A program made the translations under genes and the position numbers. The notes below the pieces were generated by a model that saw only the letters and a program-made list of their open reading frames with translations, ran no database searches and had not been told where the DNA came from. This document shows positions 11,811 to 19,552 of a stretch of 64,000 bases of DNA, one piece after another. Origin of the DNA: Antedon mediterranea (taxonomy: Eukaryota; Animalia; Echinodermata). The DNA lies in contig NC_092676.1 in assembly GCF_964355755.1 (NCBI RefSeq), positions 29,875,499 to 29,939,498 on the forward strand, read 5' to 3'. Numbering within the stretch: the first letter of the stretch is position 1; each line of letters begins with the position of its first letter.

Positions 11811-14484
11811 TCATTCCCAGCACACATCATCACGCCTCAGTGTAGTTTGCAAGGTCTGTATATCCCTTAGAAGTGTTTTATTCTGACGTGGTGGTTGATT
11901 CTTCACTGTAATTGGCTGTACTCTTGACCCTTTTGTTTTGACCGTTGTAATGACCTGAACTTCAGCACTGTTTGAACTTGATGGTATTGAGACTGAAGAC
12001 GAACGACTTATGGCTCGCTTCTTTGTCTTCTTTTTACTTTCCAAGGCCTGCAATATTTTAAATGGACAAAAAAAAAAATGTTTTTCAGATTTGCTACATT
12101 GTTTGTTAGATAAAAACCAAACTTTCAAGTTAAAATCACGATTGTGAGGTATTTGCAAACTGCCTTAAAATGTCGACATATTTCTAGAAACTATTCTCAT
12201 CATCAGAACAGAAAAAACGCCTAGAGTTCTTATATACCAATTAAACATCAATGCCAACCAAGAGGACCCACTAACGCTCTGTCTACACTATCAAATTAGT
12301 TTGACAAACAAAGTGTGATGTGCCCAAATATGGTAGTGATATGATGTCATCATGTCCATATATGGGAACATCACATAAAGTTTGATAGTGTGGACAAGAT
12401 TTTACCTTTGATTTGTGCCTTTTTAATTTAGCAATCTGTTCTCCCTTGGCTTCCATTCTAATCACCAACTGCTCCAGTTCTCGTTCCAAATCTTCCCTTA
12501 AATGTCGATCATCTGTTTCCTGAATCTGACGAGCTATTTCTTGATGCTCACTAATATTTAAAATAAAAAAAGTCATTTGAAAAATTAAAGAAAATTACAA
12601 ATCTTCCAGGAAAAAGTAATACATGGATGCAGAAATATAAGGTGTACAGAAATATCAGGTGTGTAAAAATATAAGGTGTGCAGAAATAAAGGTGTCCAGA
12701 AATATAAAATGTCAAAAAATATAAAATGTCAAAAAATATAACGTGTGCAGAAATTATAAGGTGTGCAAATATATAATGTCTGCAGAAATATAACACTATA
12801 TTTTTCAATACTTACAATCCCATCTGCCCAAATTCATCTTGTAATCCCAACATAAGGTCAGCAAGGTCACTTTCTGAGGTAGACGATGATACCGATGGCC
12901 GACGATGGACCGTTCCATTAACTCGCTTCATGAGGGGGCCATTGTTACACCATGCAGGATTGTGCGTCTTCAACATTGCTAGTACACTCTGAAGATTCGA
13001 ACTTAGTGAATGGCTCGGAGTGGTTGACTGTTAAAAAGATTCATTTCATTTATTTTGCCATATAAAAGTTTCAGGAAGACATTTTTTTTTTTTTTCATAT
13101 TAACTGGTCCTTTCAACTAGAATATTGGAATGCAATGTAGGAGTACCTTTCATGTAACAACAAGGTATAATTAAGTTTAAACTTACTTTGCCAGCAACAA
13201 ATGGTAGAGTTTTAAAGTTTGCCCTGTAATGGCTTCCTTTTGTCGTTGTTGGTTTAGCTTTAGCAGGTTGACTAGATTGCACATTCCTTCGCTTCTTCTT
13301 TTTCTTTGGTTTTGTTGGTTGAGGGGGTGTGTTTGACGCTAGCATAATTCGGTTCATTTCTGTTTCTGTCTGAAGCTAAAAGAAAACATTGACAATAAAC
13401 TTATGTTTTCAAAAACTATGATTTTATATATTTTTTGGAATTACCAGGCTTAAGGCATTACCTCTGCAGCTTTTTCTTGGACCAACCTACGATGATGTTG
13501 CTCTTCACGCACCTTCTCTTCAAGCTGTTGAATTTTTTTCTGAAAATAATAAATTTTACAGCATAAATGTAATATGTTAGGTATACCTTAATTAATACAT
13601 GGGGTGGAGAGTCTGGTATATCTCAAGTTGTGTACTGATTATTATTATTATTATAAATCACTTTATTTACTTGAGTCCTTGTTTGAGTTGCCTGCAATTT
13701 CATGTTATCTCTTTCCAATTTTTCCACCTTTTCCTGGTGTAACTGTATCTCTTCAACCTCTTCTTTTTCCCTAGCATTAACGATCAGCTTCCGTTCGTGC
13801 AAGGCTCTGTTACGATCATGCTCGGAATTCTGCACCATTTTGCGCATATATTCCAGCTGCTTCTCCAACAGATTACACCTACTTTCTGCCGAGTCTAAAT
13901 GTAATTCTACTTCTGTTAAAAAAAAGTGAATAGGTTCAATCAGTTAAACTAACTATTTTTTTTTAGGGTAGAAGAAGGCATAATTATTTAGTTTCTTACA
14001 CACCCTTAGTTTGTTTAGATATCTCTGTTTGTGTCTCTTCTTTAGCCGTGTGTTCTTTCTGAAGAATTTCTTTGTATTGTGTTGTTTCCGATGCTAAACT
14101 TTTTAGGTTTTGTTCTGCTTGAGTGCGCTCCAACTCCAACTTGCGTATCTTGTCCTGTAGACCACGCAGTGCCGATATAATTGCTGTCAGATAAAAAATG
14201 AAAATGTTATACTTTATAATATGCATATCAGATGTAGGCAAATTGAAATTGTATGTTGTGCTACAGTACAGTATATATCAAAACAAATTCAGCATACTGT
14301 AACCATACTAACCACGACTTTTAGTCTCTGGCGCGGAATTGGTGTTTCTTGGCGAACGCCCTGGTGCATACTGATCGTCTAATAATGGCCGTGAGTGAGG
14401 ATATTCATTGTAAGAGGAAATAGAATCATTACGTAGAGAATAGTCCATGTCTGTGCCTAGGCCTACATGATACGATGACGGCAT
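11811..14484 (-). CDS. CEP57: Centrosomal protein CEP57 homologue (coiled-coil; centrosome/microtubule-binding). Eight coding exons.
   Basis: Exons (minus strand, high to low): 14313..14484 (ATG at 14484-14482), 14004..14183, 13671..13912, 13462..13539, 13187..13375, 12816..13027, 12406..12550, 11811..12047 (stop at 11811). All donors and acceptors are canonical on the minus strand, with phases 1,1,0,0,0,2,0. The translation matches human CEP57 as recalled from memory: [30 protein letters not shown] vs [30 protein letters not shown]; [13 protein letters not shown]; LPFVAGK; LQDEFGQM; [20 protein letters not shown]. Supported by ORF-track frames 13996..14241, 13623..13868, 13100..13357, 12283..12576 and 11811..12158. 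Confidence 0.85.
12275..12397. mobile_element. MITE, same family, in the last CEP57 intron.
   Basis: cgctctgtctacactatcaaattagtttgacaaac...aagtttgatagtgtggacaag. Confidence 0.65.
12620..12790. repeat. Degenerate 17/18-bp tandem repeat (cagaaatataaggtgtg)n x about 9 in a CEP57 intron.
   Basis: Direct reading of 12600..12800. Confidence 0.8.
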
Positions 14485-15307
14485 TGACTATAGTAGAAAA
14501 CAAACATGTTACGTAAACATAAATAGTTTATATTATAGGCCTAAAGACTAGCCTAGCTATCTATAATATCTAGAATAAAGACAGAGGCTACAGTTACAGT
14601 ATATTTTTAATAAATGTTTAAATATGTTGAAGAAGCTTTTTATTAATTTATTCTAGGCCCAGGCCTCTAAATCTAGGCTAACACCTAGAGTAGAGGAGAA
14701 TTCGGAGCCTGGAACATTCCATGGCCCACTCATCGTGGCCATGCCCATGTATGAAGACAATTGGCCTAGGCCTAGCCTACACTAGAAGATTGGCCGGAAG
14801 ACGTGGATGATGGGCCACTGTACTGACTAAGCTGGGCTAGCAGGCCCATCCATGCGTGCATGTGGCCTAAATACAGCTTAGCTTATTTAAAAATATCATA
14901 TAAAACACTGAACAAGTGTATTACGTTTATACTTACTTGCATAAAGTTTTCAGTCATTTTGATTTACATAAAATTAAGTAAAATGGTTAATCTGTTAATC
15001 TAATAATCTCATCTTTCCTGTTTTGGCGTCGTACGTGCGGCGGAAACTTCAAAATATTGCAAAAAGATCAACAATTTGAAGAAAACATTCCATTGGTCCA
15101 AATAAAAAGCCCGCCCTCAGAATTTTTCTAACCACTTCCTCCTACTTCATAGTCTTCTTTGCAGTCGTAGTATAAGAACAAAAAGAAAAGGCAGTCGGTC
15201 GGCGAATTTGTTGTTGTTTTGAATTTGAAAATTGTCAATTTTTTGTTAGTCTTGGATAGAAATCTAACCTAAATCTTCTTTCTGTTCATAGTTCACACAA
15301 TCAACAA
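14485..15307. promoter_or_regulatory. CpG-enriched bidirectional promoter region shared by the divergently transcribed CEP57 (-) and FAM76 (+).
   Basis: About 820 bp lie between the two ATGs (14484 and 15308). The local GC/CpG rise (ggcctaggcc, cgtcgtacgtgcggcgg, gccggaagacgtgg) contrasts with the AT-rich flanks. No TATA is evident. The head-to-head arrangement is the same as human FAM76B-CEP57. Confidence 0.5.
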
Positions 15308-18300: not shown

Positions 18301-19552
18301 ACTAGGGTGTAATTGAGTTTCAACCAAGCTTCAGTCTTCCCATATCTCAAATGAAGAGTTACAGGTAAGATACTAGGGTGTAATTGAGCTTCAACCAAGC
18401 TTCAGTCTTCCCATATCTCAATGAAGAGTTACAGGTAAGATACTAGGGTGTAATTGAGTTTCAACCAAGCTTCAGTCTTCCCATATCTCAATAAAGAGTT
18501 ACAGGTAAGATACTAGGGTGTAATTGAGTTTCAACCAAGCTTCAGTCTTCCCATATCTCAAATGAAGAGTTACAGGTAAGATACTAGGATGTAATTGAGC
18601 TTCAACCAAGCTTCAGTCTTCCCATATCTCAAATGAAGAGTTACAGGTAAGATACTAGGGTGTAATTGAGCTTCAACCAAGCTTCAGTCTTCCCATATCT
18701 CAATAAAGAGTTACAGGTAAGATACTAGAGTGTAATTGAGCTTCAACCAAGCTTCAGTCTTCCCCTATCTCAATGAAGAGTTACAGGTAAGATACTAGGG
18801 TGTAATCGAGTTTCAACCAAGCTTCAGTCTTCCCATATATCAATGAAGAGTTACAGGTAAGATACTAGGGTGTAATTGAGCTTCAACCAAGCTTCAGTCT
18901 TCCCATATCTCAATGAAGAGTTACAGGTAAGATACTAGGGTGTAATTGAGTTTCAACCAAGCTTCAGTCTTCCCATATCTCAATAAAGAGTTACAGGTAA
19001 GATACTAGAGTGTAATTGAGCTTCAACCAAGCTTCAGTCTTCCCCTATCTCAATGAAGAGTTACAGGTAAGATACTAGGGTGTAATCGAGTTTCAACCAA
19101 GCTTCAGTCTTCCCATATCTCAATGAAGAGTTACAGGTAAGATACTAGGGTGTAATTGAGCTTCAACCAAGCTTCAGTCTTCCCATATCTCAATGAAGAG
19201 TTACAGGTAAGATACTAGGGTGTAATTGAGCTTCAACCAAGCTTCAGTCTTCCCATATCTCAATGAAGAGTTACAGGTAAGATACTAGGGTGTAATTGAG
19301 TTTCAACCAAGCTTCAGTCTTCCCATATCTCAAATAAATGTTCACAATTTTTAGACTAATTTTCACCAAACAATGGGTGTTTTTATGTTACCTTTTTTAC
19401 GCTTCTATAAAAAAGTCTGGAGTTAGAAAGTGTTATTTGTAACATGATTTCCCGGCTGCTTTTGATAATGATGCTGCTTATGATAATCTGTATGTCAAAT
19501 TTTGTTTTTTTTTCAGTCAAGAAACCGAATGTTGAACAAACAGTTACAGCAG
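15308..19552 (+). CDS. FAM76B: FAM76 (FAM76A/B) homologue. Nine coding exons are resolved; the 3' terminal exon or exons after 19552 are unresolved, with a possible micro-exon near 19675..19690.
   Basis: Exons: 15308..15412 (ATG 15308), 15872..15936, 16046..16106, 16241..16393, 16583..16755, 16912..16980, 17527..17692, 17983..18084, 19517..19552. Phases are consistent. The translation [148 protein letters not shown] is near-identical in its Cys pattern to human FAM76B as recalled from memory. The C-terminal coiled-coil [46 protein letters not shown] also matches. Confidence 0.8.
18085..19330. repeat. About 60-bp minisatellite x about 20 immediately downstream of FAM76 exon 8. Every unit begins with a copy of the exon-8 3' end plus the splice donor (AAGAGTTACAG|GTAAGATACTAGGGTGTAATTGAG(C/T)TTCAACCAAGCTTCAGTCTTCCCATATCTCAAT).
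   Basis: Direct reading. The first unit is the genuine exon end 18074..18084 plus donor gtaaga. Units vary (caat-g/aa/aaat spacer, c/t, an ag-to-ga change). Confidence 0.95.

Follow-up and report, generated by a model that had tools for sequence, protein, structure and literature searches.

CEP57 and FAM76 lie head-to-head, with 350 bp between their start codons, in a 64,000-nucleotide stretch of the genome of the crinoid Antedon mediterranea (contig NC_092676.1; hereafter the window). We found the same tight arrangement, with gaps of 339-577 bp, in 4 of 11 sampled genomes belonging to three phyla (Echinodermata, Chordata and Brachiopoda), and the pair probably dates to early bilaterian animals and has often been lost since. 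We favor, at a probability of about 0.55, the reading that this ancestral pair has been held together by a compact shared promoter with proliferation-linked control of both genes. The initial annotation had proposed an ancient, conserved head-to-head pair by comparison with human FAM76B and CEP57, adjacent in the standard annotation and taken to be head-to-head at 11q21; the antiquity is upheld by a second crinoid, a bird and the brachiopod Lingula, all of which share the tight arrangement, but conservation has to be qualified by its loss in many lineages.

Gene models and the interval between the start codons

The divergent arrangement, with CEP57 on the minus strand, FAM76 on the plus strand and their 5' ends facing, was borne out by spliced models of both genes, each 100% identical to an NCBI protein of the crinoid Antedon mediterranea. 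The features that define the locus are as follows.

11811..14957, minus strand: CEP57 coding region, nine coding exons, 492 amino acids (spliced model with GT-AG introns; Pfam; NCBI identity)
CEP57 exons: 14957-14937, 14487-14313, 14183-14004, 13912-13671, 13539-13462, 13375-13187, 13027-12816, 12550-12406, 12047-11811 (including the stop)
14488..14936, minus strand: CEP57 intron 1, CpG observed/expected 0.42, counted as promoter in the initial annotation
14958..15307, no strand: interval between the start codons, 350 bp, putative shared bidirectional promoter plus both 5' untranslated regions (UTRs)
15308..19579, plus strand: FAM76 coding region, nine exons, 318 amino acids (spliced model, all introns GT-AG; Pfam; NCBI identity)
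FAM76 exons: 15308-15412, 15872-15936, 16046-16106, 16241-16393, 16583-16755, 16912-16980, 17527-17692, 17983-18084, 19517-19579 (including the stop)

The CEP57 product matched above cut-off both the N-terminal centrosome-localization domain Cep57_CLD (PF14073; 8.6e-56, 189.2 bits) and the C-terminal microtubule-binding domain Cep57_MT_bd (PF06657; 8.7e-21, 74.6 bits), and was 100% identical to NCBI Antedon mediterranea CEP57 (P0121). Its start had been placed at 14484, which proved to be wrong, as the NCBI protein has eight further residues, MTENFMQS, seven of them encoded by an upstream exon at 14937-14957. This exon is followed after 14937 by the donor GTAAGT, with the pyrimidine-rich acceptor TGTTTTCTACTATAG (ending in TATAG) before 14487, and it is conserved, since Anneissia japonica CEP57 has an equivalent N-terminus, MSEKFMPP. 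Since the start codon sits in this exon, the two start codons lie 350 bp apart, and the transcription start sites must lie less than 350 bp apart unless further 5' UTR introns exist; we predict a CEP57 start site near 15000-15050 and a FAM76 start site near 15150-15220, under 250 bp from each other. More than half of the promoter of about 0.8 kb that had been proposed (14488-14936) is therefore CEP57 intron 1.

The interval had also been described as the most CpG-rich stretch of the window, and here the counts disagree. The window is AT-rich (34.7% GC) with a mean CpG observed/expected ratio of 0.75, against which 14485-15307 held 17 CpG at a ratio of 0.63, at the 50th percentile of 823-bp segments by CpG count and the 42nd by observed/expected; segments at 33.3-34.2 kb, 35.4-36.3 kb and 21.0-21.8 kb reached 49-57 CpG per 823 bp. 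The 350-bp interval itself contained 10 CpG (observed/expected 1.05, 33% GC), all within a core at 15010-15215 that showed mild local enrichment (10 CpG, observed/expected 1.24, 40% GC). Taking a CpG island to require GC above 50-55% and a CpG observed/expected ratio above 0.6 over at least 200 bp, we rejected one here, given the 33% GC, the average standing of the originally claimed interval within the window and the mildness of the core enrichment. What drew attention to the region was probably a patch in CEP57 intron 1 (14640-14870) with 51% GC, an abundance of GGCC and a CpG observed/expected ratio of 0.33. A mobile element in this intron was considered and rejected, the patch being single-copy in the window and its flanks having a weak 17-nucleotide inverted repeat only. 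Elsewhere in the gene, CEP57 intron 7 contains a 17-bp tandem repeat (12628-12793, 9.8 copies, 80% match). The top CpG observed/expected ratios of the window (2-2.75, at 25-33% GC) were at 35400-37250 and come at least partly from tandem repeats, with units of 74/147 bp (36138-36659) and 46 bp (37122-37236); 33685-33821, where there is a 16-bp repeat, likewise belongs to the CpG-rich parts of the window.

The FAM76 product covered nearly the whole of the Pfam FAM76 profile (PF16046; 3.2e-114, 381.8 bits against a cut-off of 28.5, profile positions 1-296 of 298) and matched NCBI 'FAM76A-like [Antedon mediterranea]' (P0001) with 100% identity and coverage. The plus-strand start at 15308 agreed with the spliced model and the NCBI protein, and the end first given, 19552, fell 27 bases short, the last exon reading through a GT at 19553 to the stop at 19579. 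Two repeats in this gene duplicate splice donors. Intron 8 contains a 70-bp unit repeated 18 times at 96% identity (18073-19333), each copy opening with the last 12 nucleotides of exon 8 and its donor (GAAGAGTTACAG followed by GTAAGA), such that the intron holds 17 extra donor copies. At the exon 3/intron 3 junction (16096-16156), a 32-bp unit in 1.9 copies of 100% identity doubles the end of exon 3 together with its donor. At both repeats, it is the first donor that the annotated protein uses.

We assessed FAM76 orthology with a bootstrapped neighbor-joining tree of 22 FAM76 proteins, in which the vertebrate FAM76A, FAM76B and combined A+B clades each received 100% bootstrap support and every invertebrate sequence fell outside them. 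Antedon FAM76 was about equally similar to the two vertebrate types (54-56% to A, 53-58% to B). Because the vertebrate A+B clade excludes the invertebrate sequences, the crinoid gene predates the A/B duplication and is a single co-orthologue of vertebrate FAM76A and FAM76B, which makes it legitimate to compare its neighborhood with that of FAM76B and CEP57. The possibility that it is a FAM76A-type paralogue, raised at the outset as a reason to doubt the pairing, thus fell away.

Distribution of the pair across animals

Loci of FAM76 or CEP57 were taken from ten other genomes, and each was searched with both Antedon proteins by tblastn to guard against missing annotation, with the following outcome.

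Antedon mediterranea (crinoid): tight head-to-head, 350 bp
Anneissia japonica (crinoid): FAM76 (minus) and CEP57 (plus) tight head-to-head, 339 bp; Utp14 convergent with CEP57
Cyrtonyx montezumae (bird, quail): FAM76B (minus) and CEP57 (plus) tight head-to-head, 577 bp; then an MTMR-type gene
Lingula anatina (brachiopod): tight head-to-head, 386 bp; FAM76 gene of 420 amino acids on the minus strand
Patiria miniata (sea star): same scaffold, divergent, start codons 64.9 kb apart
Apostichopus japonicus (sea cucumber): no partner within 10 kb; Utp14 convergent with CEP57
Saccoglossus kowalevskii (acorn worm): no partner within 10 kb
Glandiceps talaboti (acorn worm): no partner within 10 kb
Branchiostoma floridae (amphioxus): no partner within 10 kb; an RRM gene head-to-head with CEP57
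Owenia fusiformis (annelid): no partner within 10 kb
Montipora capricornis (coral): no partner within 10 kb; the neighbor is a PreP-type M16 peptidase

Orientation was 5'-5' in all four tight cases and in Patiria. The bird partner was identified as FAM76B by its 87% identity to pigeon FAM76B, as against 74% to a galliform FAM76A, and the bird locus thereby confirmed the head-to-head orientation of FAM76B and CEP57 for vertebrates. The gene that follows CEP57 in the bird encodes GRAM and Myotub-related domains and is, judging by position, presumably MTMR2. In human, SESN3, FAM76B and CEP57 would lie at 11q21, SESN2 and FAM76A at 1p35, and SESN1 and CEP57L1 at 6q21, a layout that, if confirmed, would place the linkage before the two rounds of genome duplication. 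Lingula FAM76 was recognized from seven collinear tblastn exon matches (best E 3e-22; locus L010, 5855-9614). It had no Pfam hit in the precomputed listing, so that tblastn alone revealed the pair, and such listings can give false negatives. The Lingula protein bears long histidine runs (HHHHHHHHHH), a feature that we take human FAM76B to share.

In several deuterostomes that have split the pair, both proteins were on contigs of identical length (Asterias, Acanthaster at 1.68 Mb, Apostichopus and three Branchiostoma assemblies), and because of these identical lengths we took the split genes to remain on the same chromosome or scaffold. Of the 64.9-kb gap in Patiria, the 10-kb flank at either end was covered, and neither flank held a called gene. 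We considered a shared new FAM76 partner in Patiria and Saccoglossus and rejected it, as the upstream open reading frames (ORFs) of about 170 amino acids were unrelated to each other or to CEP57. The genes called upstream of CEP57 in Owenia (locus L011, 5516-9847) were also set aside, since they lie inside a 42-bp tandem array of about 104 copies with several frames open; the three called genes of this array have no Pfam hits and are probably spurious.

A single ancient origin is favored because a protostome, an ambulacrarian and a chordate share orientation and near-equal spacing, with Patiria displaying a stretched state. The pair would then have been broken in many lineages, mostly within the same chromosome, and kept in some. 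Absence from intermediate taxa, which the initial annotation had named as a sign of convergence, was found in part: six genomes had no partner within 10 kb and the sea star genes were 65 kb apart, but a protostome has the pair. The one coral sampled lacks it and cannot decide whether the pair predates Bilateria.

Conserved motifs in the interval

The Antedon and Anneissia intervals were alignable around a few conserved blocks, with divergence scattered between them. The conserved elements are listed here with Antedon coordinates.

15068..15098, no strand: 31-nucleotide block without a difference between Antedon and Anneissia, reading GACCAATGGAATGTTTTCTTCAAATTGTTGA on the CEP57-sense strand (alignment and motif scans)
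15075-15080: cell-cycle gene homology region (CHR) motif TTTGAA on the plus strand, inside the 31-nucleotide block, equal to TTCAAA on the CEP57-sense strand, a reversed TTYGAA
15092-15096: ATTGG on the plus strand, a CCAAT box on the CEP57-sense strand, inside the 31-nucleotide block
15048..15053: second CHR-type hexamer, TTTGAA on the CEP57-sense strand, kept in Anneissia, 21 nucleotides beyond the reversed CHR
15109-15116: GC box GGGCGGGC on the CEP57-sense strand, GGGCGGG in Antedon and GGGCGTG in Anneissia at matching spacing
15134-15139: ETS core GGAAGT on the CEP57-sense strand, GGAAGT in Anneissia at matching spacing

Going from FAM76 towards CEP57, the order in crinoids is thus ETS core, GC box, CCAAT box, reversed CHR (TTCAAA) and second hexamer (TTTGAA), with 11 nucleotides between CCAAT and TTCAAA in Antedon. 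Mueller et al. in 2014 reportedly gave TTYGAA as the CHR consensus. The motif scan of the crinoid interval returned no TATA box, and neither the E2F consensus (TTTSSCGC) nor NRF1 (GCGCMTGCGC) was present in the crinoid or Lingula intervals; Antedon near-matches to the two (TTTCCGCC and TTTGGCGT) were set aside as lacking conservation in Anneissia. The E2F consensus occurred in the bird only among the intervals scanned. Of the three motif classes suggested for this promoter, CHR was therefore recovered, together with CCAAT and conserved between both crinoids, and E2F and NRF1 were absent from the crinoid interval.

We then defined a composite as CCAAT-N(5-30)-TTCRAA with CCAAT on the FAM76 side, which all four pair-keeping genomes had in the same polarity. 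CCAAT and TTCAAA are separated by 14 nucleotides in Lingula and by 24 nucleotides, among them a consensus E2F site, in the bird. In each case this is the sole occurrence of the composite in the whole locus (26 kb in Lingula, 31 kb in the bird). None of the eight separated loci had the composite in the 7 kb scanned upstream of the start codon. With a background rate of 0.039 per kb per orientation (410 kb), the joint chance that Lingula and the bird would display the composite in the right place and polarity, the pattern being taken from crinoids, was about 7e-5, and shuffled intervals gave a similar product. This value is too optimistic because the spacing range was set post hoc, promoters are enriched in CCAAT and absences were counted from start codons; the composite is a real lead and not a demonstration.

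A proposed shared promoter and its alternatives

Under the favored reading, one compact promoter region would serve both directions, such that splitting it would damage one gene, and conserved 5'-5' pairs are usually explained by just such a loss of control on splitting (PMC3514665). From its motifs, the shared promoter would be TATA-less and without a CpG island, and would combine an ETS core, a GC box, CCAAT as an NF-Y site and CHR as a LIN54/MuvB site. CHR sites recruit MuvB through LIN54, in quiescent cells as part of the DREAM repressor and in G2/M together with B-MYB and FOXM1 (PMC9090780), and a CCAAT/CHR module would accordingly be predicted to give both genes proliferation-linked, cell-cycle-dependent transcription, which would fit the centrosomal role of CEP57. 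The presence of CCAAT plus reversed CHR in all four pair-keeping genomes and in none of the eight separated loci suggests NF-Y/MuvB control common to both genes. Human CEP57 and FAM76B are also both listed in a 415-gene table of RB/E2F1-bound, p53-p21-dependent repressed genes (PMC9090780), which would be expected if one cell-cycle promoter served both. Cell-cycle co-regulation of FAM76 and CEP57 is plausible on these grounds.

Several observations weigh against this reading. Six of the 11 genomes have no partner within 10 kb and a seventh, Patiria, has the genes 65 kb apart; because the pair is absent or stretched in 7 of 11 genomes, selective constraint would be weak or lineage-specific, and frequent loss likewise indicates that constraint on the pair is not strong. 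The composite and its spacing range were defined after the sequences had been viewed, its TTYGAA half is frequent in AT-rich DNA (140 per 64 kb) and promoters in general often carry a CCAAT box. The CHR is reversed with respect to CEP57, the E2F consensus is confined to the bird, and NRF1 is absent. Finally, the start codons served as reference for absence at the separated loci, where the real promoters could lie hidden behind 5' UTR introns missing from the annotation.

A serious rival, which we hold possible though somewhat less probable, is neutral persistence, in which an ancestral pair without a functional tie has survived by chance in some genomes that rearrange slowly because a gap of 350-600 bp is a tiny target for breakpoints, each gene having a separate core promoter built of generic motifs. 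It would accommodate the apparently harmless loss of adjacency in the holothurian, two enteropneusts, amphioxus, the annelid and the coral and its stretching to 65 kb in the asteroid, and CCAAT, GC-box and ETS motifs are indeed generic promoter elements, with a motif statistic that is post hoc. It is less easily squared with three phyla keeping a gap below 600 bp and an intact orientation over the whole bilaterian span, with a 31-nucleotide block perfectly kept amid otherwise diverged crinoid intergenic DNA, or with a composite whose order and polarity are the same in crinoids, Lingula and bird and which occurs just once in each of the bird and Lingula loci. Excess co-expression is, moreover, a property of conserved 5'-5' pairs taken as a group (PMC3514665).

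The shared-promoter reading has a stronger form, in which the motif grammar itself (ETS core, CCAAT, reversed CHR 11-24 nucleotides on, CCAAT on the FAM76 side) has been kept since the bilaterian ancestor and is the reason that the pair cannot be split. We consider this rather unlikely. If it were true, a new promoter for one of the two genes would have been needed in lineages that lost the pair, and the interval would be among very few promoters whose motif order and polarity are traceable across phyla.

Convergence, with head-to-head arrangements arising independently in crinoids, vertebrates and Lingula with the help of a common ancestral linkage group, would account for the patchy distribution (the tight pair is lacking in the nearest sampled relatives of every lineage that has it, namely the other classes of echinoderms, hemichordates, amphioxus and, among annelids, Owenia) and is made less improbable by the same-chromosome location in several deuterostomes, but it would require an event of ~5e-4 per lineage by a rough, uncomputed estimate for one head-to-head neighbor among ~1000 genes on a chromosome, or ~1e-6 to 1e-5, again roughly and with lineage choice allowed for, for two further independent origins, and is at odds with the Patiria intermediate, in which orientation was kept as the gap grew to 65 kb, and the likeness of spacing (339-577 bp) and CCAAT-CHR polarity in all three lineages. 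Because the pair is also found in a protostome outgroup, convergence is very unlikely, and a single origin before the bilaterian ancestor with repeated loss is far likelier than three independent origins.

Gene context in the window

The other genes and features recognized in the window are listed below.

9575..11163, plus strand: UTP14 homologue, 3' exons (Pfam Utp14, 4e-22 and 4e-20)
22175-24554, minus strand: class C G protein-coupled receptor (ANF_receptor, NCD3G, 7tm_3)
about 27000-39000, plus strand: several short-chain dehydrogenase-like ORFs (motifs recognized by eye, without a Pfam test)
45926-47767, minus strand: forkhead-domain gene, one ORF of 614 amino acids
49397-52618, minus strand: GMC oxidoreductase N and C domains with C-terminal PNK3P (4.5e-47), a single uninterrupted ORF of 1073 amino acids
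57685-59861, plus strand: MutS-family gene

UTP14 is convergent with CEP57, as first described, and the separation of about 650 bp between 3' ends agrees with the 647 bp from its stop codon, ending at 11163, to that of CEP57. The convergent arrangement was common to Antedon (9575-11163 with 11811-14957), Anneissia (L003, 10001-24901) and Apostichopus (L008, 10001-39220) and was not found at the Patiria, bird, Lingula or amphioxus loci. It looks like an echinoderm-level microsynteny that in holothurians has outlasted the pairing with FAM76. Wider synteny with human 11q21 was rejected, since neither MTMR2 nor SESN3 is present within the window, and none of the other window genes, namely Utp14, the class C receptor, the short-chain dehydrogenase-like ORFs, the forkhead gene, the GMC-oxidoreductase/PNK3P ORF and the MutS homologue, is a neighbor of human FAM76B or CEP57. 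An Rfam search of 11000-20500 gave no non-coding RNA match at E<=0.1.

The GMC-oxidoreductase/PNK3P ORF is intronless amid an intron-rich region, has an odd domain mix and, at 43% GC, exceeds its surroundings in both GC and CpG; a fusion, a retrogene and foreign DNA are possible explanations. A simple repeat at 2680-3460, upstream of or within the UTP14 region, has all frames open on both strands and translates to runs of YIMVQ and YYGTV.

Significance

Little is understood about FAM76 proteins, CEP57 is a gene of the centrosome and spindle, and we know of no functional link between their products. Linkage in three phyla together with a CCAAT/CHR-type promoter predicts that FAM76 would be expressed with the proliferation and centrosome programme, which offers a lead to FAM76 function. 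The pair is also a small, tractable case for asking whether bidirectional promoters constrain gene order and what becomes of each promoter after breakage, with the sea star (genes 65 kb apart) and amphioxus (CEP57 with a new partner) as natural experiments. The general phenomenon is well documented, and the gain is incremental.

Comparison with known systems

The closest counterpart is the vertebrate FAM76B-CEP57 pair, as seen in the quail, where orthologous genes are likewise divergent across a gap of less than a kilobase (350 bp in Antedon, 577 bp in the bird) that contains a CCAAT box followed by TTCAAA in the same polarity. The bird interval is a true CpG island (66% GC, 73 CpG, observed/expected 1.2) with six CCAAT boxes and an E2F consensus, whereas the crinoid interval, at 33% GC, has 10 CpG and lacks an E2F consensus. 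The partner in vertebrates is FAM76B, which has FAM76A as a paralogue, in contrast to the single pre-duplication gene of crinoids, and the gene downstream of CEP57 is of MTMR type in the bird and UTP14 in crinoids.

Among promoter classes, the interval resembles the CCAAT/CHR cell-cycle promoters of CDK1, CCNB1 and CDC25C, which act through NF-Y and DREAM or B-MYB-MuvB-FOXM1, in being TATA-less with CCAAT and TTYGAA close together near the presumed start sites, and human CEP57 and FAM76B share with that class their place among RB/E2F1-bound p53-p21-RB targets (PMC9090780). It departs from them in having one CCAAT box and no cell cycle-dependent element (CDE) 4 nucleotides upstream of the CHR, and in a CHR that is reversed relative to CEP57 and distal to CCAAT relative to FAM76, a non-canonical layout. 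A bidirectional pair, FOXM1-RHNO1, has been cited alongside CCAAT/CHR cell-cycle promoters (PMC8104967). Sites for GABPA, NF-Y, YY1 and NRF1 are enriched in human bidirectional promoters according to Lin et al. 2007 as cited in PMC3082894, and the intervals studied here share with such promoters an ETS/GABP core (GGAAGT in crinoids, CCGGAAGT in Lingula), a CCAAT box and, in Lingula, a YY1-like AAGATGG, but the crinoid interval is AT-rich and has no CpG island or NRF1 site.

As a gene pair, FAM76-CEP57 resembles the conserved ancestral microsyntenic pairs (CAMPs), of which about 600 have been described, HSPD1-HSPE1 among them (Irimia et al. 2012, PMC3514665), in that unrelated genes are adjacent across phyla, 5'-5', with a very short gap read as a bidirectional promoter. 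Of the features by which CAMPs are recognized, adjacency in distant clades and conserved orientation were the two compared here, and FAM76-CEP57 has both. HSPD1-HSPE1 is kept in nearly all studied species and encodes two subunits of one machine, whereas FAM76-CEP57 is tight in 4 of 11 genomes. The main text of Irimia et al. 2012 (PMC3514665) does not mention the pair by name, and our literature search for it in connection with a bidirectional promoter or synteny found no paper discussing FAM76-CEP57. Set beside these systems, FAM76-CEP57 is a further, at most newly noticed, example of a described class of conserved pairs.

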